Notes: a model not told the origin generated them from the sequence alone. Shown: positions 16,708-39,709, counted from the stretch's first letter. The stretch: DNA of 64,000 nt from an uncultured Flavobacteriaceae bacterium (GCA_963762065.1 CAVXJE010000001.1:92191-156190); one strand, 5' to 3'. Numbers and translations: made by a program.

Positions 16708-17040
16708 ATGGGACATTTTGAGCTTCAAATTCGGAATTCCATGGTTTCACTACTTCTGGTGGTCTTTATTCTAGCCCCATCAATAGTTAAATTTTCGCAT
16801 GCCATAAATGAACATGAGCTGTTGGAATGTAAGGAAATTGGAAAATTGCATTTTCATAAAATAGAGATGGATTGTGATTTTCAAAAATTCAATCTTTCGC
16901 CTGTAATATATCCGCCCTTAGTAGTATTTCCAGAATATTTTTCAGTTAGCATATTAAAAAACCATTTCTCCCATTATTCTTTTTTAAGCAATTACCAAAA
17001 TCTACATTTTGCATTAAGAGGCCCTCCCTTTATTTCATAG
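16708..17040 (+). CDS. Small membrane-anchored His/Cys protein ending in LRGPP; candidate arrest/leader peptide of the TonB receptor
   Basis: N-terminal hydrophobic helix; H/C cluster (HAINEHELLEC…HFH…CDF); RGPP at 17017-17028; stop 44 nt before the receptor ATG. Confidence 0.7.
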   Translation: MGHFELQIRNSMVSLLLVVFILAPSIVKFSHAINEHELLECKEIGKLHFHKIEMDCDFQKFNLSPVIYPPLVVFPEYFSVSILKNHFSHYSFLSNYQNLHFALRGPPFIS

Positions 17041-17084: not shown

Positions 17085-19304
17085 ATGAAATATTTATTTC
17101 TATTTATAATTTTTGCAATGTCCTATAATTGGGGCTTTGCACAAAATATAGTTTCAGGGACAATCACCAATAAAGAAGACAACCTTCCCATTGAGCAGGC
17201 TACCGTTTATTTTCCAGACTTGGAAATGGGCACAACTACTGATTACAATGGCTATTATGAATTAAATGATGTGCCTATTGGAAGTTTTGAAATGATAATA
17301 TCCAATATAGGATTTGAAACCTATTCAAAAAACTTAAATGTTTTATCGGGCAACAATACTTTTAATATAAGCCTTTCATCCACTGCTATAGAAATGGAGG
17401 AAGTTATTGTTTCCACCCCCTTTCACAAACTACAAAGTGAAAACGTCATGAAAGTAGAGCGTGAAAGCATGCAAGAACTTAGTGCCAATGGGGCGATAAC
17501 CCTTTCAGACGGTATTACAAAAATTGCAGGTGTTGAGAGTGTTTCTACCGGTGTTGGAATTGGCAAACCGGTAATCCGAGGGCTAAGTGCTAATAGGGTC
17601 TTGGTGTATACCCAAGGAGTACGTTTGGAAAATCAACAATTTGGGGATGAACATGGCCTCGGAATCAATGATGCAGGTTTGGAAAGTGTAGAGGTTATAA
17701 AAGGTCCCGCTTCCCTACTCTACGGCTCGGATGCTATGGGTGGTGTTCTTTATTTCAATCCTGAGAAATTCGCAATTCCGAATGAAACTGAAGGGGATGT
17801 AAACCTTAATTATTTTACCAATACCAATGGTCTTGGGTTCAATATAGGTGTAAAAACATCCAGTGAAAAACTAAAATTCCTGTTGCGTGGAAGCCATGCT
17901 TCACATATAGACTATAAAACAGGTGATGACGTACGTTTAACCAATTCCCGATTTAATGTATCTGATCTAAAAACGGGTTTGGGCTATCAATCAACATCAT
18001 TCAAAACTGAGTTACGATACAATTATAATCTATCAGAAATAGGTATTCCTGAAGAAATTGGTGAGCAGTCCAAAAGTCGTTCCCCACAACTGCCAAGTCA
18101 ACAAATAGGTAATCATATCCTTAGCAGCAAGACCAAAATTTTCTTTGATAAAACAAGTTTAGAGGCAACATTGGGCTATACTTTCAACAATCGGAAAGAA
18201 TTTGAGGATGACGAGGATATTGCCGCCCTGGAAATGCATTTGTCAACCTTAAATTACAATCTAAACTTTGAAATGCCCAAATGGGGAAATTTAGAGACCA
18301 TTATAGGGATTCAAGGAATGCATCAGACCAATAGAAACTACGGTGAAGAACAATTAATTCCTAACGCTAACACCAACGATATCGGGGTTTTAGCTACATC
18401 CCATATGCATTTTGAAAACAAAAGCGATCTTCAAATGGGGCTTCGATTTGACCATAGAAATATAAATGGTGAATTCAATAATAGACCTCCGGAGGATAGT
18501 TTCTATGAAAATTTTGACCGGGACTTTAATAGCTTCAATGCTGCACTAGGTTATAAATTTGAATTATTTAATAATACTGTAGCCAGAATTAATATGGCCA
18601 CTGGGTTTCGTGCACCCAACTTGGCTGAATTGACCTCACTTGGAGTCCATGAAGGCACCAATCGATATGAAATTGGGAAAATTGATTTAGATAATGAACA
18701 AAATTTTCAAACGGATATTTCATTGGAATATAAGGACGATCATCTTGAATTTTTCATAAACGGTTTTCACAACTCAATTACCGATTACATATTTATTGAA
18801 CCTACAGGTTTGAGTATAGGTGAGGATGAGGTATTTGAATATCGACAACAAAACGCTAAATTATTCGGTGGCGAAATTGGTTTTCACCTACACCCACATC
18901 CATTGGATTGGTTACATTTTGAGAGTAGTTTTGAAACGGTCATCGGAAAGCTGGAAAGTGATGAATACCTACCTCTTATTCCTGCCAACAACCTAACCAA
19001 TACCGTTCGGATTGAAGGAAAGGATACAACAAAATGGTTGAGGAACAAATACGCTTTTATTACCTTAAAATCGGTTTTCAATCAAAATAAGGTTGGTGGA
19101 TTCGAAGACCCTTCCGACGGATATAATTTGCTTAATCTTGGTATTGGTGCAAATATTTCTGCTTTTAACACACTTATAGAAGTTCGTGTGAGTGGTCAAA
19201 ATATAATGGATAAAGCTTATATTTCACATTTATCTCGTTTAAAAAATGATGGAATAGCAAATATTGGAAGAAATATTTCCCTTGCCGTAGGCATTCCATT
19301 ATGA
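17085..19304 (+). CDS. TonB-dependent receptor, probable metal/nutrient uptake
   Basis: Signal peptide; KPVIRGLS; ENQQFGDEHG plug; EVIKGPASLLYGSDAMGGV; GFRAPNLAEL. Confidence 0.93.
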   Translation: MKYLFLFIIFAMSYNWGFAQNIVSGTITNKEDNLPIEQATVYFPDLEMGTTTDYNGYYELNDVPIGSFEMIISNIGFETYSKNLNVLSGNNTFNISLSSTAIEMEEVIVSTPFHKLQSENVMKVERESMQELSANGAITLSDGITKIAGVESVSTGVGIGKPVIRGLSANRVLVYTQGVRLENQQFGDEHGLGINDAGLESVEVIKGPASLLYGSDAMGGVLYFNPEKFAIPNETEGDVNLNYFTNTNGLGFNIGVKTSSEKLKFLLRGSHASHIDYKTGDDVRLTNSRFNVSDLKTGLGYQSTSFKTELRYNYNLSEIGIPEEIGEQSKSRSPQLPSQQIGNHILSSKTKIFFDKTSLEATLGYTFNNRKEFEDDEDIAALEMHLSTLNYNLNFEMPKWGNLETIIGIQGMHQTNRNYGEEQLIPNANTNDIGVLATSHMHFENKSDLQMGLRFDHRNINGEFNNRPPEDSFYENFDRDFNSFNAALGYKFELFNNTVARINMATGFRAPNLAELTSLGVHEGTNRYEIGKIDLDNEQNFQTDISLEYKDDHLEFFINGFHNSITDYIFIEPTGLSIGEDEVFEYRQQNAKLFGGEIGFHLHPHPLDWLHFESSFETVIGKLESDEYLPLIPANNLTNTVRIEGKDTTKWLRNKYAFITLKSVFNQNKVGGFEDPSDGYNLLNLGIGANISAFNTLIEVRVSGQNIMDKAYISHLSRLKNDGIANIGRNISLAVGIPL

Positions 19305-33195: not shown

Positions 33196-33203
33196 TATCT
33201 TTG
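33196..33203 (+). promoter_or_regulatory. -7 promoter element (TATCTTTG) for the His-rich ORF / czcA operon
   Basis: Exact TAnnTTTG 7 nt before the ATG at 33211. Confidence 0.6.
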
Positions 33204-33210
33204 TCTTATA

Positions 33211-33603
33211 ATGGGTAAACTTCTTTCCATAGCCTTGTCTTTTTTAATTCTATTCCAGAGTTTAAATCTGGAATTGGGTGACTTGGCCCATATTGACGAG
33301 CTATTGGAACATGCCGAGTATCATTCTCAAAAGTATGGAGACAATTTCCTGGTTTTTATTTCAAAACATTACGGTGAATTGCAAAAAGAACATAGCCAAG
33401 ACCATCAAGAGGAAAAAAAAGAACATGAAGAACTTCCTTTTAACCATCATTGTTGTTCCCATATTTATACCGATTTTGTATTGAACCATGCTGGGATTCC
33501 ATTGTTAAAGATTGGACCTGTCGCAGACTTGACAGCCAATTTCTATTATTTGGATAATTATTCCTCTTTTGAAAAATTTGATATTTTTCAACCTCCAAAG
33601 TAA
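33211..33603 (+). CDS. His-rich small membrane-anchored protein ending in IFQPPK; candidate leader of the RND operon
   Basis: N-terminal hydrophobic helix; HAEYH, HYG…EHSQDHQEEKKEHEELPFNHHCCSH; C-terminal QPP; 76 nt before czcA. Confidence 0.8.
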   Translation: MGKLLSIALSFLILFQSLNLELGDLAHIDELLEHAEYHSQKYGDNFLVFISKHYGELQKEHSQDHQEEKKEHEELPFNHHCCSHIYTDFVLNHAGIPLLKIGPVADLTANFYYLDNYSSFEKFDIFQPPK

Positions 33604-33679
33604 TTGCATTTCTTTCTTGATTTATTAGATCTGCATCTATTTCGTGCGGATAATTTGTATCACTTACTATTGCAGGATT

Positions 33680-36600
33680 ATGTTATCAAACATCATACGA
33701 TTTAGTATAAAGAATAAGCTATTTGTTCTTTTGCTAACCCTTTTCATCGTTTTCTTTGGGATTTATTCCATGACCCAAATTCCTATTGGCGCAGTACCCG
33801 ATGTTACCAATAATCAGGTACAGGTCATTACCACATCCCAAAATCTATCTACACAGGATATTGAACAGTTTATTACCTATCCAGTAGAATTGGAAATGGC
33901 AAATTTACCTGGGGTAGTTGAAATTAGATCCATCTCCAAATTTGGTCTATCTGTGGTTACAATTGTCTTTGAGGATGATATGGGCACTTACCTACCCCGA
34001 CAGTTGATTGCTGAAAAAATAAAATCGGCAGCGGAAAAAATCCCTGAAGGATTTGGCACTCCAGAGATGGGTCCCATAACCACTGGTTTAGGTGAAATTT
34101 ATCAATACATACTGGATACAAAACCAGGATACCAAGATAAGTATTCGGCTATGGAACTACGGACCATACAGGATTGGATCGTAAAACGTCAATTGTCCGG
34201 TATTCCCGGAGTGGTAGAGGTAAATACTTGGGGTGGACTTTTAAAGCAATATGAAGTTGCTATAAATACCGGGAAACTAAACGCAATGAATATTACCATT
34301 GCCCAAGTTTTCGATGCCTTGGAAAACAACAATGGAGTTGCCGGTGGCGGATATATTGAAAAAACCAACCAAGCCTTCTTTATTCGCGCCGAGGGCTTAA
34401 TTACTTCCTTGGAGGACATTGAAAATATCGTAGTCAAAAATGAAGACGGCATTCCCATTTTCATAAAAAATATAGCCACAGTTGGTTTTGGCAGTGCTAC
34501 TCGCTTTGGCGCAATTACCGGAAATGGAGAAGGTGAAAAAGTACTCGGACAAGTAATGATGCTTAAGGATGCGAATTCGAAAAAGGTAATCGAGGCCGTA
34601 AAGGAGCGTGTGGAATCCATTGCTAAAACATTGCCCGAAGGAGTTTACATCAACCCCTTTTTAGAACGTAGCGAACTGATTGCGAAAACTACTTTTACCG
34701 TTGCAGAAAATCTAATTCTAGGATGTTTGATCGTTATTTTTGTGGTTGTTCTATTATTGGGGAATTTTCGTTCAGGGCTAGTAGTTGCTTCGGTAATACC
34801 CTTATCCCTCTTGTTCACGCTTTCGTTCATGTACCTGTTTGGGGTAGATGCGAATTTAATGAGTTTGGGAGCCATTGACTTTGGGATCATTATCGATGGT
34901 GCTGTGATTATCGTTGAATACATTGCTTTCCAAATTACCTCGAAAAGGCTTGAATTGGGAAAAATGTCCCATACGGATAAAAATTTGGCGAAAGATGAAA
35001 TTACATTCAAAAGTGCTTCAAAAATGATGAACTCTGCCATTTTCGGGCAGCTAATTATTCTCATTGTATTCATCCCAATATTATCATTGAGTGGTGTTGA
35101 AGGAAAAATGTTCAAGCCTATGGCAATGACATTCAGCTTTGCTTTGATTGGTGCGATGCTTTTATGCTTTACGTATGTACCGGTGATCTCATCACTGATA
35201 TTAAAACCAGCCCGAGAATCAGAAAAAAATATATCCGTACGTTTAATGCGATTTCTGAACTTAATGTATGAACCTTCCATTCATTGGGCTTTGGCGAGCA
35301 AGAAATTGGTTCTTGGGATTGCATTATTGCTATTGACAATGTCTATTTTTCTTTTTACCACGATGGGAGGGGAATTTGTACCGACCTTGGATGAGGGCGA
35401 TTTTGTAATTCAGCCTATCTTAAAAACGGGTACTTCTTTAAGTAAAACCATTGAAACAACTACAAGAATTGAAAAGATCTTGTTGAATGAATTTCCTGAA
35501 GTAGAACAAGTAGTTACACGAATCGGTGCAGCTGAAGTGCCTACAGATCCTATGTCTATGGAAGAAACAGATGTAATCATCACCCTTAAACCGAAGAAAG
35601 ATTGGGTAACCGCATCCACTAAAGATGCACTGGCAGATAAATTCAAAGAAGCATTGGCTGTTATTCCAGGTATGGAAGTTGAATTTACACAACCCATTGA
35701 AATGCGTTTTAATGAACTTATTACAGGTGTCAGGGCAGATATCGCCATTAAGATATTTGGTGAAGACCTAGAGGTATTGAACAAAAAAGGAAACGAGATA
35801 AAAAGATTGATTGAAGATATAGAAGGTGCCTCGGATATCAGTGTTGAAAAAATTGCCGGTTTGCCTCAAATGAACATTAAATACAACCGAGCAAAAATTG
35901 CTCGTTATGGTATGAATATCAGCGATTTGAATAAACTTGTTTCAATGGGTTTTGCAGGTGCTAATCTAGGTAGTGTTTTTGAAGGTGAAAAACGTTTTGA
36001 CCTGACCCTAAGACTTGATGAAAATAGCAGAAAGGATATTGATAACATTAAAAACCTTTATGTAGACCTACCTTCAAGTGGTAAAATCCCAATGAGCGAA
36101 TTGGCACAAATATCATACACCAAAGGAGCTGCCAAAATTTCAAGGGATGATACCAAGAGAAGAATAGTTGTAGGTATCAATGTTCGTAACAGGGATTTAC
36201 AATCGGTTGTTAATGATGTTCAAAATAGAATTGAATCCAATATTACACTTCCAGTAGGTTATTCAATTACCTACGGAGGGCAGTTCGAAAATTTACAGAG
36301 CGCCAAAAATCGTTTAAAAATAGCTGTTCCCATTGCTTTGGTCCTAATTTTCTTTTTGCTCTTTTTCGCATTCAAATCGGTGAAAGAGGCTTTAATGATT
36401 TACTCAGCTATACCTTTGGCAGCAGTAGGAGGTGTATTTTTACTTTGGATTCGGGATATGCCTTTTAGCATATCGGCCGGAGTCGGATTCATAGCTCTTT
36501 TTGGTATTGCTGTATTAAACGGAATTGTTTTGATCGAGCATTTTAAGGAATTAAAACATCAGGGTATGCACGATATCGAGGCGCGAATAATTAAAGGTTC

Positions 36601-38011
36601 AAAAGATCGATTGAGAGCGGTATTATTAACCGCTGCTGCTGCTGCCCTGGGTTTTTTACCTATGGCAATATCAACAAATGTCGGTGCTGAAGTACAACGC
36701 CCCTTGGCTACAGTGGTAATAGGAGGGCTTGTAACTGCTACCCTACTTACAATGATAGTACTTCCAGTTTTATACTCGATTTTTGATAGTAAAGTTGAAC
36801 TAAAAAAGGATATGAAAAAGAAAAGTGTGCAAGGTTTATCAATAATACTATTATTTTTTGCAAGCAATATCAATGCACAGGATAATGGATTGAATTTTGA
36901 AGAGGTTCGGGCACTGGCTTTCGAAAATAACGCAGGATTAAAAGCGGCTTCATTGAAAGTGGAAGAGTCCAAAGCCCTTGTAGGTAGTGCCTTCAACTTT
37001 GATAAGGCAGAAGTTTATTATCATTATGACCAAAATAACCTAGCCTTCAATAATGAACCTTTAAAGGTTTTTGGTGTGCAACAAAATATTTTATTTCCAA
37101 CAGTTTATTTCGCCGGAAAACGTGTAAATAAAGCAAGTTTGAATATGGAAAATAGCCGCTTTGAGATGCAAAAACAAATTCTTGAAAGAGAAATTGCCTC
37201 GGCTTATCACGAATTACAATTTGTAAGGGAAAAGGAAAGGGTTTATAGATATTTAGATAGTATTTATTTAAAATTTGCACACGCTTCACAGCGTAGATTC
37301 GAATTGGGCGAAACAAATTATTTAGAAAAAATAACAGCAAATGCCAAGCAGAAAGAATTTCATATCCTTTTTAAACAAGCACAGGAAGAGGTGTTGGTAG
37401 CTTATTCAAAATTGCAAAAGATCGTCCAGACTGAAGAGGACCTTATAATTGCCATTGCCCCCATTCAAAAAATGGAATTAAAAGAAACTGATATCTCCCT
37501 TAATGCGGGGCTTAACCTGTATAACCAAAGAAATGAATGGTTTAAAGCAAAAAGTGGATTAGAAAAACAACAGCTCTTACCAGATATAAGTCTTGACTAT
37601 TTCCAAGGAAGTAACTCTGGGTTGGGCGATAATTTATATGGTTATCAAGTAGGCTTGAAAATTCCTCTTCTCTTTAGTGGAAATGCATCAAAAATCAAAG
37701 CGTCAACTATCGCCAAGGAAATCGCAGTCGAGGAATCGGTTGAATATGCCAATCAATTACAATTAAAAAAGGCACAGCTACTAGGGCTGCTCCATAAATA
37801 CAAAGAGGCCCTTGCCTACTATGAGGTAGACGGACAAAATCTTTCAGAGGAAATACTCAAAACAGCAATCATTAGCTATCAAAATGGGGAATTGGATTTT
37901 TTCCAATACATACAGAGTTTGGAAAATGCCCATAACATTACTCTTTCCTATTTGGAAAACCTCAATAATTATAATCAGACGGTTCTAGCCCTAAATCATC
38001 TTACATTATGA
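33680..38011 (+). CDS. czcA: CusA/CzcA heavy-metal RND transporter fused to a C-terminal TolC-like outer-membrane factor
   Basis: AVPDVTNNQVQV, GAIDFGIIIDGAVIIVE (HME-family TM4), FVPTLDEGD, VQRPLATVVIGG; about 400-aa C-terminal OEP-like domain (LLPDISLDYF, YQVGLKIPL, YQNGELDF). Confidence 0.93.
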   Translation: MLSNIIRFSIKNKLFVLLLTLFIVFFGIYSMTQIPIGAVPDVTNNQVQVITTSQNLSTQDIEQFITYPVELEMANLPGVVEIRSISKFGLSVVTIVFEDDMGTYLPRQLIAEKIKSAAEKIPEGFGTPEMGPITTGLGEIYQYILDTKPGYQDKYSAMELRTIQDWIVKRQLSGIPGVVEVNTWGGLLKQYEVAINTGKLNAMNITIAQVFDALENNNGVAGGGYIEKTNQAFFIRAEGLITSLEDIENIVVKNEDGIPIFIKNIATVGFGSATRFGAITGNGEGEKVLGQVMMLKDANSKKVIEAVKERVESIAKTLPEGVYINPFLERSELIAKTTFTVAENLILGCLIVIFVVVLLLGNFRSGLVVASVIPLSLLFTLSFMYLFGVDANLMSLGAIDFGIIIDGAVIIVEYIAFQITSKRLELGKMSHTDKNLAKDEITFKSASKMMNSAIFGQLIILIVFIPILSLSGVEGKMFKPMAMTFSFALIGAMLLCFTYVPVISSLILKPARESEKNISVRLMRFLNLMYEPSIHWALASKKLVLGIALLLLTMSIFLFTTMGGEFVPTLDEGDFVIQPILKTGTSLSKTIETTTRIEKILLNEFPEVEQVVTRIGAAEVPTDPMSMEETDVIITLKPKKDWVTASTKDALADKFKEALAVIPGMEVEFTQPIEMRFNELITGVRADIAIKIFGEDLEVLNKKGNEIKRLIEDIEGASDISVEKIAGLPQMNIKYNRAKIARYGMNISDLNKLVSMGFAGANLGSVFEGEKRFDLTLRLDENSRKDIDNIKNLYVDLPSSGKIPMSELAQISYTKGAAKISRDDTKRRIVVGINVRNRDLQSVVNDVQNRIESNITLPVGYSITYGGQFENLQSAKNRLKIAVPIALVLIFFLLFFAFKSVKEALMIYSAIPLAAVGGVFLLWIRDMPFSISAGVGFIALFGIAVLNGIVLIEHFKELKHQGMHDIEARIIKGSKDRLRAVLLTAAAAALGFLPMAISTNVGAEVQRPLATVVIGGLVTATLLTMIVLPVLYSIFDSKVELKKDMKKKSVQGLSIILLFFASNINAQDNGLNFEEVRALAFENNAGLKAASLKVEESKALVGSAFNFDKAEVYYHYDQNNLAFNNEPLKVFGVQQNILFPTVYFAGKRVNKASLNMENSRFEMQKQILEREIASAYHELQFVREKERVYRYLDSIYLKFAHASQRRFELGETNYLEKITANAKQKEFHILFKQAQEEVLVAYSKLQKIVQTEEDLIIAIAPIQKMELKETDISLNAGLNLYNQRNEWFKAKSGLEKQQLLPDISLDYFQGSNSGLGDNLYGYQVGLKIPLLFSGNASKIKASTIAKEIAVEESVEYANQLQLKKAQLLGLLHKYKEALAYYEVDGQNLSEEILKTAIISYQNGELDFFQYIQSLENAHNITLSYLENLNNYNQTVLALNHLTL

Positions 38012-39225
38012 AATATTCCAGGATATTATCGGTAAATAGTAATTCAATCCTAAAAAGAAATAAAGCAACATTTATGAAATCATTTCAAAAACTGCCATTC
38101 ATCCTTATAGTTATAGTAGTTATGGCTTGCGGGGATTCTACCAATACTTATGAGACAAAAAATAAAGATGAAGCTCCATCTGATGTAATGTCAATTCAAA
38201 TCACAAAAACCCAATTTGATAACAGTGCTATGCAACTTGGGAAAATAACTGAACAGCCCTTTCCAAAAGTGGTGCAGACAACGGGCATGATAGATGTTCC
38301 TCCCCAAAACAGGGCCGTCATCAGCACTTTCGCTGGAGGTTATGTTCAAAAAACACCTTTGTTAGTTGGGAATAAAGTACGTAAAGGACAGGTCTTGGTA
38401 ACATTGGAAAATCCAGAGTTTGTTGAAATGCAGCAAAACTATCTTGAAAATGCCGAGCAACTGACCTTTTTAAAATCGGAATATGACCGACAAAAAACAT
38501 TAATGGAAGAAAAGATAACCTCACAAAAAAACTTTCTAAAAGCAGAAAGTGATTATAATAGGGCCTTGGCGATGTATAACGGATTAAAAAAGAAATTGCA
38601 AATGCTCAATATTAATACAAAGTCTGTGGAAGAAGGCTTAATTACATCGGTCGTTACACTTTACGCCCCCATTGATGGCAGTGTAACAAAGATGAATGTG
38701 ACCAATGGAGCATATGTTTCGCCAGCAGATGAAATTATGGAAATAATTAATACAGACCATATTCATCTTGAGCTTGCCGTGTTCGAAAAAGATATTCTAA
38801 AGGTAAAGGAAGGTCAAAAAATCCTATTTAAAATCCCAGAAGCTGTTGAAAATTCCTTTGAGGCCGAAGTGCACCTGGTTGGTACCTCTATTGATACAAA
38901 AAACCGGACAGTAAAAGTACATGGGCATTTAGATGATGATAGAAACCATAGCTTTGCCGTAGGAATGTTCGTTGATGCCCAAATAATTACAGAATCTAAA
39001 AAAGAATTGGCATTGCCAAATGACGCTATTGTATCAAGGGATACCAAAAATTTTGTATTAGTAAATGTTGCTGATAATGCTAACAGTTACTCTTTAAATC
39101 AAAAGGAAATAATTGTCGGAGACAGCTTCAATGGATTCACAATGATTAAAAATAAAGATGATTTCAATGAAAATGATTCATTTTTGGTCAAGGGAGCCTT
39201 CAATTTGATACAAGAGGAAAATTAG
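38008..39225 (+). CDS. RND efflux periplasmic adaptor (CzcB/CusB-like)
   Basis: GMIDVPPQ, LYAPIDG, HIHLELAVFEKD, GMFVDAQI. The lipoprotein-like signal (VMAC) suggests a start at 38074; the 38008 start overlaps the czcA stop (ATGA). Confidence 0.92.
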   Translation: MKYSRILSVNSNSILKRNKATFMKSFQKLPFILIVIVVMACGDSTNTYETKNKDEAPSDVMSIQITKTQFDNSAMQLGKITEQPFPKVVQTTGMIDVPPQNRAVISTFAGGYVQKTPLLVGNKVRKGQVLVTLENPEFVEMQQNYLENAEQLTFLKSEYDRQKTLMEEKITSQKNFLKAESDYNRALAMYNGLKKKLQMLNINTKSVEEGLITSVVTLYAPIDGSVTKMNVTNGAYVSPADEIMEIINTDHIHLELAVFEKDILKVKEGQKILFKIPEAVENSFEAEVHLVGTSIDTKNRTVKVHGHLDDDRNHSFAVGMFVDAQIITESKKELALPNDAIVSRDTKNFVLVNVADNANSYSLNQKEIIVGDSFNGFTMIKNKDDFNENDSFLVKGAFNLIQEEN

Positions 39226-39277: not shown

Positions 39278-39709
39278 ATGAAAATATTACAAATTTCAGT
39301 ATTGATCCTTTGCCTTACAGCCTGCAATCCCGGGATTTCTAAAACTGATGACATTGCAGCTATAAAAAATGTACTTAAAGCCCAAGAAAAAGCATGGTCG
39401 AACAATGACATGGTAGGCTTTATGCAGGGGTATCAACAATCCGATTCCATTGCCTATTTTGGTAGTAATGGTGTTACATACGGCTGGGATAATATGTTGG
39501 AACGCTATAAAAAGGCATATCCAACAAAAGAAGATACAGGCGAGCTGAAATTCAAAATAGCGAATATTTCAAAAATTAGTGAAGATGCTTATTGGGTCAT
39601 GGGCGAATACATTTTAACTAGGCAAGTGGGTGATGCCAACGGCACATTTATGATTGTTTTTAAACGCATTAATGGGGAATGGAAAATCGTTGGTGACCAT
39701 TCATGCTGA
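39278..39709 (+). CDS. NTF2-like / DUF4440 lipoprotein
   Basis: Lipobox LTAC; QEKAWS..D..GFM.GY; NGEWKIVGDHS. Confidence 0.85.
   Translation: MKILQISVLILCLTACNPGISKTDDIAAIKNVLKAQEKAWSNNDMVGFMQGYQQSDSIAYFGSNGVTYGWDNMLERYKKAYPTKEDTGELKFKIANISKISEDAYWVMGEYILTRQVGDANGTFMIVFKRINGEWKIVGDHSC

Follow-up and report, generated by a model that had tools for sequence, protein, structure and literature searches.

The subject of this work is a small gene at the head of a heavy-metal efflux operon in a 64,000-nucleotide (nt) stretch of DNA from an uncultured, marine Flavobacteriaceae bacterium (GCA_963762065.1 CAVXJE010000001.1:92191-156190), which is referred to as the window. The gene, called the upstream gene in the following, is an open reading frame (ORF) of 130 codons and a TAA stop codon on the plus strand (33211-33603), whose product, P0001, starts with MGKLLSIALSFLILFQS and ends with DIFQPPK-stop. 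A gap of 76 nt separates its stop codon from the ATG of czcA-tolC (33680), which encodes a fusion of a resistance-nodulation-division (RND) pump and an outer membrane factor domain (Table 1). The original prediction, made from the sequence alone, described the upstream gene as a leader-like, His-rich ORF and suggested that a metal-sensing nascent peptide controls the efflux operon. Comparison with related loci established the gene itself, its conservation pattern, its synteny, the position of its promoter, a structured intergenic gap and a covarying helix that joins its stop codon to the czcA start codon. By analogy with the copper sensor CutF, we propose, with a confidence slightly better than even, that the upstream gene acts in cis as a co-translational metal sensor.

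Table 1. Position of the genes, protein segments and RNA elements of the czc locus in the window.
Feature	Coordinates	Strand	Basis or remark
Bacteroidota sigma-A -7 promoter box TATCTTTG (TAnnTTTG)	33196-33203	+	7 nt before the ATG at 33211
Upstream gene (P0001)	33211-33603	+	130 codons and TAA; 244 homologues (word-indexed search)
N-terminal hydrophobic helix, residues 1-17 (K3, LLSIALSFLILF, QS)	33211-33261	+	conserved K3, L14, Q16, S17
Acidic His/Glu-rich domain, residues 30-78, putative periplasmic metal-sensing part	33298-33444	+	conservation and AlphaFold2
Linker, residues 79-110, including HHCCSH of this genome	33445-33540	+	variable sequence, fixed length
Arrest-like C-terminal segment F111-x-Y113...F126-Q127-P128-P129-K130	33541-33600	+	FQPPK codons 33586-33600
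5' arm of long-range helix: last sense-codon base, stop TAA, TTGCA	33600-33608	+	end-anchored helix, 87 loci
Inner hairpin ATCTGCA...TGCGGAT, then AATTTGTATC	33629-33651	+	terminator-like (terminator scan)
3' arm of long-range helix: TGCAGGATT and czcA ATG	33671-33682	+	same tests as for the 5' arm
CzcA-TolC fusion, heavy-metal RND pump and outer membrane factor domain	33680-38011	+	Pfam and TIGR00914
czcB, periplasmic adaptor	38008-39225	+	HlyD_D23 125 bits; TIGR01730 133 bits

The upstream gene, its promoter and its operon

In addition to the homologues found by the word-indexed search, an exhaustive HMMER search yielded 222 cluster representatives at 50% identity, nearly all of which are 125 to 134 amino acids long and align end to end. 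The family is carried by 119 of 301 genus-level representative genomes of the Flavobacteriaceae. All named sources of homologues belong to this taxon (Maribacter, Arenibacter, Gillisia, Eudoraea and others), and every database source annotates the homologues as 'hypothetical protein'. A CzcA orthologue lies downstream in 88 of the 90 loci that were fetched, thereby bearing out the claim that the ORF heads a heavy-metal RND operon; these orthologues are 60 to 100% identical over their N-terminus and start 58 to 160 nt away, mostly 63 to 97 nt. Judged by comparative sequence analysis, the 130-codon ORF is a genuine gene. The term 'leader-like' does not fit it well, as it encodes a 130-amino-acid protein whose first ~75 residues are confidently predicted to be helical. 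P0001 has no match to any Pfam family at E ≤ 1, and its predicted fold has no match in the PDB (Foldseek). The same searches, i.e. Pfam at E ≤ 1 and Foldseek against the PDB, returned none of the known periplasmic metallochaperones of RND systems (CusF and similar proteins). Neither the protein family nor the RNA element in its gap has a name in Pfam, NCBIfam or Rfam, which is relevant to genome annotation.

The promoter box 7 nt ahead of the ORF, which the original prediction had pointed out, is present at 33196-33203. In 71 of 87 loci, a TAnnTTT[GA] motif is found among the 40 nt that precede the ATG, and in 51 of these it ends 4 to 9 nt before the ATG. In Flavobacterium johnsoniae, the -7 element lies at -12 to -5, 4 to 5 nt from the transcription start (PMC6847099). 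Because the box abuts the ATG of the upstream gene, and given this spacing, the mRNA of the window probably starts at about 33208 and has a leader of only ~3 nt; the mRNAs of the family would likewise start 0 to 5 nt before the ATG and be nearly leaderless. Leaderless mRNAs are uncommon in flavobacteria and make up 5.5% in Flavobacterium psychrophilum (PMC9723704). The gaps between the upstream gene and czcA are depleted of canonical -7 boxes (0 of 87, compared with 7.4 ± 2.6 expected), which suggests that czcA is transcribed from the promoter ahead of the upstream gene. An internal czcA promoter of the canonical type was rejected, the box being absent from 87 of 87 gaps. The sequence TAATTTGT at 33651-33658, 21 nt before the czcA ATG, fits TAnnTTGY, an alternative -7-type motif described in F. 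psychrophilum, and may act as a weak internal czcA promoter. This motif is found at that position in 6 of 87 loci and in 8 of 87 in total, which is not above chance (9.8).

The uniform annotation as a hypothetical protein would accord with a conserved gene that lies beside the pump by chance, ends in Pro-Pro by accident and has no functional link to efflux. Such a coincidence is extremely improbable and is effectively refuted by the comparative data: CzcA follows the gene in 88 of 90 loci, which come from different genera, and the invariant motif, the fixed tail, the covarying helix and the depletion of promoter boxes would all have to be accidental as well.

In agreement with the original prediction, no regulator gene is located within ~5 kb on either side of the operon. 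The genes found in these flanks are uxaC and uxuA and those for an SDR, an FAA hydrolase, a DAO oxidoreductase and a proline racemase. Within the operon, the czcB start overlaps the czcA stop. The czcA-tolC product matches the Pfam families ACR_tran (942 bits) and OEP (70 bits) as well as TIGR00914 (1167 bits); CzcA and the TolC-like outer membrane factor share a single frame of 1443 amino acids (33680-38011) with a hydrophobic segment at the junction. A gene for a DUF4440/SnoaL-like, lipoprotein-like protein of 143 amino acids (39278-39709), located on the same strand 52 nt past czcB, may also belong to the operon. The genome carries one gene for elongation factor P (EF-P).

Architecture of the upstream protein

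Residues 1-17 of P0001 are conserved, and AlphaFold2, run on an alignment of 101 sequences, predicts a helix at residues 2-17 with a predicted local distance difference test score (pLDDT) of 80-90, in which K3 is followed by a hydrophobic core of 12 residues. The N-terminal hydrophobic helix described in the original prediction is thereby corroborated. It would act as a Sec signal or signal anchor, and the acidic region after the helix fits an N-in/C-out topology, by which the remainder of the protein would be exported. Helices are predicted through residue 73 (pLDDT 80-93), and those of the domain formed by residues 30-78 reach a pLDDT of 84-93. Invariant positions are H34, H38, G43, D44, the sequence SKHYG at 51-55 (including H53), H61, E68 and P76, and H72 varies little or not at all. 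The invariant His and Glu residues are spaced i, i+4 on the predicted helices. The mean net charge over residues 18-78 is -8, and residues 18-90 contain 8.5 His on average. The conserved Cys/His ligand motif that CutF-like proteins carry in their exported part would be represented in this family by the invariant His/Glu set, and metal binding by this set is putative. The His/Cys/acidic tract highlighted in the original prediction, EHSQDHQEEKKEHEELPFNHHCCSH (residues 60-84 of P0001), is present and includes the conserved H61 and H72, but its Cys-Cys pair is not conserved, since Cys is missing beyond residue 17 in 26 of 87 members.

The linker formed by residues 79-110 is the least conserved part of the protein (entropy 3.2 bits, top-residue frequency 0.28), and the distance from P76 to P128 is 51 to 55 residues in all 84 members in which it was measured. 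Residues 80-130 have no predicted secondary structure (pLDDT 51-58); the pLDDT is ~51-57 for residues 101-130 and drops below 50 for residues 128-130. Within this part, F111, Y113, F126, Q127, P128 and P129 are invariant or nearly so. An alignment of ORFs upstream of CzcA genes had been suggested as a check of the conservation of the QPP ending and the His cluster, and both hold: the His residues named above are invariant or nearly so, and [FL]QPP is retained in 87 of 88 genus-level orthologues. The motif is almost always followed by [KR], and exactly three residues follow Pro-Pro in 82 of 88 members. The codons for Q, P and P use all synonymous alternatives at their third positions and never change at the first and second ones, which indicates that selection acts on the peptide and not on the RNA. 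A conserved domain, a hypervariable spacer of fixed length and a conserved segment of ~20 final residues would be the pattern expected of an arrest peptide that monitors the outside of the cell.

Part of these data would also suit a stable accessory subunit, a membrane-anchored periplasmic His/Glu metal-binding protein that hands metal to CzcA-CzcB or modulates the pump, either as a chaperone or as a CzcI- or AcrZ-like partner. FQPP[KR] would then be a docking motif, and the helix in the gap would only couple translation for stoichiometry. The strong conservation and confident folding of the first ~75 residues, the i, i+4 spacing of His and Glu and the strict co-occurrence with CzcA agree with such a role. 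So does CzcI of Cupriavidus, which is grouped with the CutF-like proteins, has no proline motif and is regarded as a regulator protein that senses metal. However, the conserved C-terminus is unstructured and lies beyond a hypervariable linker of fixed length, a tunnel/translocon spacer pattern that would be unusual for a docking tail. The accessory role also assigns no function to the three-residue tail or to a helix that starts at the last codon, and the protein has no relative in Pfam (0 families) or the PDB (0 Foldseek matches). An accessory subunit thus appears rather unlikely; it is compatible with the sensor model, and the two are non-exclusive.

The intergenic RNA and its stop-start helix

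The gaps between the upstream gene and czcA are more structured than expected. Compared with dinucleotide-preserving shuffles, the minimum free energy (MFE) of the 87 gaps has a mean z-score of -2.10 (t = -13.3); in 46 loci the score is lower than -2, and in 4 it is positive. In the MFE fold, the two ends of the gap, namely its first 12 and its last 28 nt, are paired with each other in 69 of 87 loci, whereas the shuffles show this in ~23 loci and in 35 at most. Cognate arms pair with a mean of -4.98 kcal/mol and non-cognate arms with -2.94 kcal/mol, a value that none of 20,000 permutations reached. An alignment-free register scan revealed a single sharp register, which joins the A of the czcA AUG to the first stop-codon base. 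This pairing is found in 100% of cases, that of the G with position -2 of the upstream gene in 97% and that of the U with position -1 in 83%. Across the family, the last sense codon, the stop codon and the next 6 to 8 nt face the czcA AUG and the bases upstream of it. The reach of the helix into the last codon explains the use of GCA or TCA at this site in 55 of 87 loci.

The helix was tested on an ungapped, end-anchored alignment of 87 loci, as a whole-gap alignment made with MAFFT misaligned the 5' ends. Over its 12 pairs, 73.5% of the cells are paired, compared with 34-41% when the partner strand is slid by 1 to 3 columns, and the covariation score is 0.235 versus 0.157. None of 500 shuffles scored as high for four of the five measures; for the remaining one, pairs changed on both sides, 49 of 500 did. 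The shuffle control disregards phylogenetic relatedness, which the slid control does not. Changes on both sides occur in 9 of the 12 pairs, and examples of compensatory arms are UAAUUCAUU/AAUGAAUUA, UAAUCCAUU/AAUGGAUUA, UAGUCC/GGACUA, UAACACAU/AUGUGUUA and UAAUGAU/AUCAUUA. In ~20 loci a variant register is found, in which the 3' arm ends 8 to 12 nt before the AUG. Two further features lie close to the czcA start: an out-of-frame AUG is located 7 or 8 nt upstream of the czcA AUG within the 3' arm in 48 of 87 loci (...AAUGAAUUAUG), where the window carries AGGAUU, and position -3 of czcA is an A in 71 of 87 loci, which corresponds to the Kozak-like determinant reported for F. johnsoniae.

In most loci, a central hairpin is found inside the outer helix. 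In the 76-nt gap of the window it is formed by ATCTGCA (33629-33635) and TGCGGAT (33645-33651), a pairing already recognized in the original prediction, which comprises 8 pairs and was flagged by the terminator scan. Central hairpins with a T-rich tail qualify as terminators in 31 of 87 gaps, compared with 7.1 ± 2.4 in shuffled sequences. This excess could point to transcription attenuation, in which the central hairpin and its T-rich tail act as an intrinsic terminator and the behaviour of the ribosome sets the read-through into czcA, similar to CruR (see below) but Rho-independent; a near-leaderless upstream gene would favour the close coupling of transcription and translation that such a mechanism exploits. 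However, most stems are AU-rich and contain 2 to 3 G-C pairs, and 56 of 87 gaps have no hairpin that qualifies as a terminator. In most of the listed hits, the hairpin begins 19 to 28 nt past the stop codon, beyond the reach of a ribosome located there. Furthermore, no conserved antiterminator pairing was found on inspecting the sequences. A switch between CTGCA (33631-33635) and TGCAG next to the czcA start had been part of the original prediction: TGCAG is indeed present at 33671-33675, but its pairing with CTGCA has no counterpart in the other loci inspected. It was rejected, as it is possible only because TGCA is palindromic, and the conserved partner is the stop codon with the bases after it (33601-33608). 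Attenuation is thus distinctly unlikely. No Rfam family matches the gap of the window or those of six related loci.

A second, diverged subfamily was found in 20 other Flavobacteriaceae genomes (L122-L141). Its members contain DFCGP and a conserved HSHHQCCHP and end in FQPP[KR][VA]-stop, with two residues after the prolines. This subfamily heads another CzcA gene and was counted in favour of the sensor model. Its gap measures 95 to 123 nt, and an 11-bp outer stem starting from the stop codon (UAAUUCAGUUU/AAACUGAAUUA) encloses three hairpins, whose sequences vary among loci while the pairing is kept. The proteins are nearly identical across genera, which suggests horizontal transfer of the cassette. 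In one of these loci (L127, 13-210), two tRNA genes are located immediately upstream of the upstream gene and could mark the integration site of a mobile czc cassette.

A proposed cis-acting metal sensor and its known counterparts

The best match among described systems is CutF of Rhodobacter capsulatus, the first protein of the cutFOG operon. Copper bound to a periplasmic CxxxC motif keeps the ribosome stalled at a C-terminal PPP of CutF (PMC9973294; bioRxiv 10.1101/2025.02.05.636593). The mechanism defined by experiment for CutF further comprises an action restricted to cis, a need for translation and for the signal peptide, and a product that is quickly degraded. CutF-like proteins were defined by a length below 150 amino acids, a PP among the 15 C-terminal residues, a signal peptide and a short distance to the next gene (Ozturk et al. 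2023, PMC9973294). The class has 5,334 members, 19% of which are from Bacteroidota, and OEP and ACR_tran (CzcA/CusA) are among the commonest neighbours (PMC9973294). The idea of a metal-sensing upstream ORF is therefore already published, as this class lists Bacteroidota members beside CzcA-type genes (Ozturk et al. 2023). The family described here agrees with the definition in length (130 amino acids for P0001, about 125-134 in the family), in its prolines (QPPK-stop in the window, PP and three residues in 82 of 88 members) and in its gap and neighbour (76 nt to czcA-tolC, with CzcA following in 88 of 90 loci). An RNA that shields the next start codon, as known from CutF, is represented on computational evidence by the covarying 12-pair helix, which takes in all three bases of the czcA AUG. 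By this analogy, the proteins most likely form an unnamed new family of a recently described kind of regulator, of which both the concept and the occurrence at Bacteroidota RND pumps have been published before.

The likeness extends further. Both CutF and the upstream gene are the small first gene of a metal-homeostasis operon and have an export helix and an exported ligand motif, both of which are putative for P0001. In both, Pro-Pro stands beside a basic residue within the last 15 residues, and ~45-55 residues separate the ligand motif from the prolines. In both, a gap of less than 100 nt contains an RNA structure that hides the start of the next gene, and an induction logic would suit detoxification. 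P0001 differs from CutF in that it shares no detectable sequence similarity with it and does not match Pfam DUF2946; its ligands would be His/Glu instead of CxxxC, and its motif is FQPP[KR] instead of PPP. In addition, P0001 is encoded by a near-leaderless gene, has an RND pump as its putative target and would probably sense Zn, Co or Cd. The helix also differs in that it buries the AUG together with the Kozak-like A at -3 and has the stop codon of the upstream gene itself as its partner. Bacteroidota do not use a Shine-Dalgarno sequence.

CruR (Bp2923) of Bordetella pertussis, a DUF2946 protein, carries CXXC and RAPP motifs and controls Rho-dependent termination ahead of the gene of a TonB-dependent transporter (PMC9426467). 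Copper relieves the arrest, which leads to Rho-dependent termination and thus to repression, and the gap measures 162 nt (Roy et al. 2022, PMC9426467); the action of CruR is independent of its signal peptide and of EF-P (PMC9426467). CruR shares with the upstream gene the position at the head of a metal operon and a conserved C-terminal xxPP; its nascent product senses a metal and its effect on the following genes is post-transcriptional, as is proposed for P0001. It differs in its target, which is an exporter here, in the gap, which is about 70-90 nt here, and in the stop-start helix found in the gaps of the family. CzcI of Cupriavidus metallidurans, which is encoded upstream of czcCBA and was grouped with the CutF-like proteins, is a proposed metal-sensing regulator (Ozturk et al.). 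Compared by description, it is likewise small and its gene immediately precedes a Czc RND efflux operon, but it lacks the C-terminal proline motif. The arrest peptides SecM, VemP, MifM, ApdA/ApdP and the RAPP-like proteins combine an N-terminal export signal, a spacer and a conserved C-terminal segment of ~17-20 residues ending in Pro, as the family would, and their stalling unfolds an RNA that otherwise covers the start of the following gene (PMC10987492). Unlike the family, they monitor export, precede sec or yidC genes and have no conserved folded domain. P0001 falls outside the RAPP-like proteins, which are defined by their motif and a position upstream of secA, secDF or yidC, as its motif is F-Q-P-P and its downstream gene is czcA.

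According to the sensor model, transcription of the operon would start right at the near-leaderless upstream gene and continue through czcA-tolC and czcB. The N-terminal helix would bring the nascent chain to the Sec translocon, and the acidic His/Glu domain (residues ~20-78) would emerge on the periplasmic side. The fixed-length linker of ~50 residues would span the translocon and the ribosomal tunnel at the moment when Pro128-Pro129 reach the peptidyl-transferase centre; its 52 ± 2 residues would approximate the length of exit tunnel plus translocon, placing the His/Glu domain just out in the periplasm. FQPP[KR] would slow peptide-bond formation, possibly aided by F111 and Y113 further up the tunnel. 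Meanwhile, the czcA start codon would be hidden in the helix with the last sense codon, the stop codon and the next 6 to 8 nt of the upstream gene. The front edge of a ribosome lies ~15 nt downstream of the first base of its P-site codon. A ribosome paused at Pro-Pro with a tail of three residues would thus have its front edge exactly at the helix: when Pro128 occupies the P site, the stop codon would begin at +16, in the middle of the helix. This geometry assumes the usual footprint and a P-site placement as reported for arrests of the RAPP type. During termination at the stop codon, a ribosome would be located within the helix as well, so that any ribosome at the 3' end of the upstream gene, paused or terminating, would open it and allow translation of czcA. 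If the exposed domain binds Zn, Co, Cd or Ni, the pause would become longer and more pump would be made. In this scheme, the three-codon tail would serve as a molecular ruler for the front edge of the ribosome, which would unzip the stop-start helix from its pause at Pro-Pro. Export, metal binding, pausing, the direction of the response and the action in cis are proposed by analogy with CutF, and the ribosome stalling, metal binding and 'opposite logic' relative to an ORF at 16708 that the original prediction envisaged are likewise suggested by analogy only.

Several observations weigh against this model. P0001 has no canonical AxA cleavage site, and its export is therefore deduced from topology rules only. 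The FQPP motif does not fit the RAPP-like consensus (R/Q/H)(A/G/D)(P/G/S)(P/G), and no match to DUF2946 (PF11162) was found in the whole genome at E ≤ 10. A di-proline with K/R after it is not known to cause strong stalling, and the genome does encode EF-P. The confidently predicted, strongly conserved helical domain of ~75 residues would suit a stable functional protein equally well, and the stop-start helix could serve plain stoichiometric coupling of translation that involves no regulation. In addition, the copy in the window is atypical. Its helix (33600-33608/33671-33682) has 8 of 12 pairs in the family register and is weaker than those of most relatives, with UUGCA/UGCAG and UAA/UUA as an alternative pairing. 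The gap of the window folded alone gives non-significant z-scores of -0.97 and -1.3, and the significance comes from the comparative set only. P0001 is also the sole member among 88 with a single residue after Pro-Pro (33598-33603); the QPP one codon before the stop that the original prediction reported is correct for this genome but peculiar to it, the norm being three codons (82 of 88). Compared with a relative of the same genus (L005), which ends in ...PPKNS-stop, the copy in the window appears to have lost two codons.

If the sensor model is true to its full extent, it would be the first example of CutF-type control that involves a metal other than copper, the first at an efflux pump and the first that is independent of a Shine-Dalgarno sequence. 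It would also account for the lack of a regulator gene beside these czc operons. To our knowledge, only CutF and CruR have been tested as metal sensors that act as nascent exported peptides, and both are copper sensors of Proteobacteria. The present family comes from a phylum that has no Shine-Dalgarno sequences, and it would combine histidine ligands with an RND efflux target. To the published concept it adds the stop-start helix, the three-codon tail, the fixed linker length, the near-leaderless promoter and a ligand set that would rely on histidine only. The predictions are precise, i.e. a tail of three codons, a linker of 52 ± 2 residues, a helix containing a stop and a start codon and a near-leaderless mRNA, and the family is an abundant test case, being present in ~40% of the genera of Flavobacteriaceae and forming at least 222 clusters at 50% identity. 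It is tempting to speculate, at somewhat less than an even chance, that Flavobacteriaceae, and probably Bacteroidota more widely, regulate heavy-metal RND pumps independently of a transcription factor through a near-leaderless upstream gene, whose product would sense Zn, Co or Cd across the membrane by means of its histidines.

Two further small genes of the genome resemble the upstream gene. The ORF at 16708-17040 of the window has an N-terminal helix and His/Cys residues and ends in LRGPPFIS, i.e. with Pro-Pro and three residues. It is located directly upstream of the gene of a TonB-dependent receptor (17085-19304) and matches no Pfam or NCBIfam family. The other belongs to the NCBIfam family NF047658 (HYC_CC_PP) of Bacteroidota, for which a literature search on 'HYC_CC_PP' found no papers. 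This family is similar to that of P0001 in its size, its N-terminal helix and a Pro-Pro close to the C-terminus, and its genes precede those of CusA-type RND pumps, but it has Cys ligands and ~15-17 residues after Pro-Pro. P0001 scores 14.1 bits (E = 0.05) against the HYC_CC_PP hidden Markov model (HMM), below its cut-off of 28 bits. Weak hits to the HMM were obtained from 12 of 101 family members (best E = 6e-4), and a profile-profile comparison (hhalign) gave a probability of 38.7% over 37 N-terminal columns only. The true HYC_CC_PP member of the same genome (G000:C9:657654-658058; L002 7652-8074, minus strand) scores 129.5 bits, has 140 amino acids and carries the motifs MHYCG, DCC and WPPP. 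It lies directly upstream of genes for a second RND pump, which is CusA-like (1264 amino acids), an outer membrane factor and a DUF3347 lipoprotein. HYC_CC_PP is present in 141 of 151 Flavobacteriaceae genomes, and about half of 29 sampled loci precede a CusA-like pump, with gaps of 92 to 195 nt.

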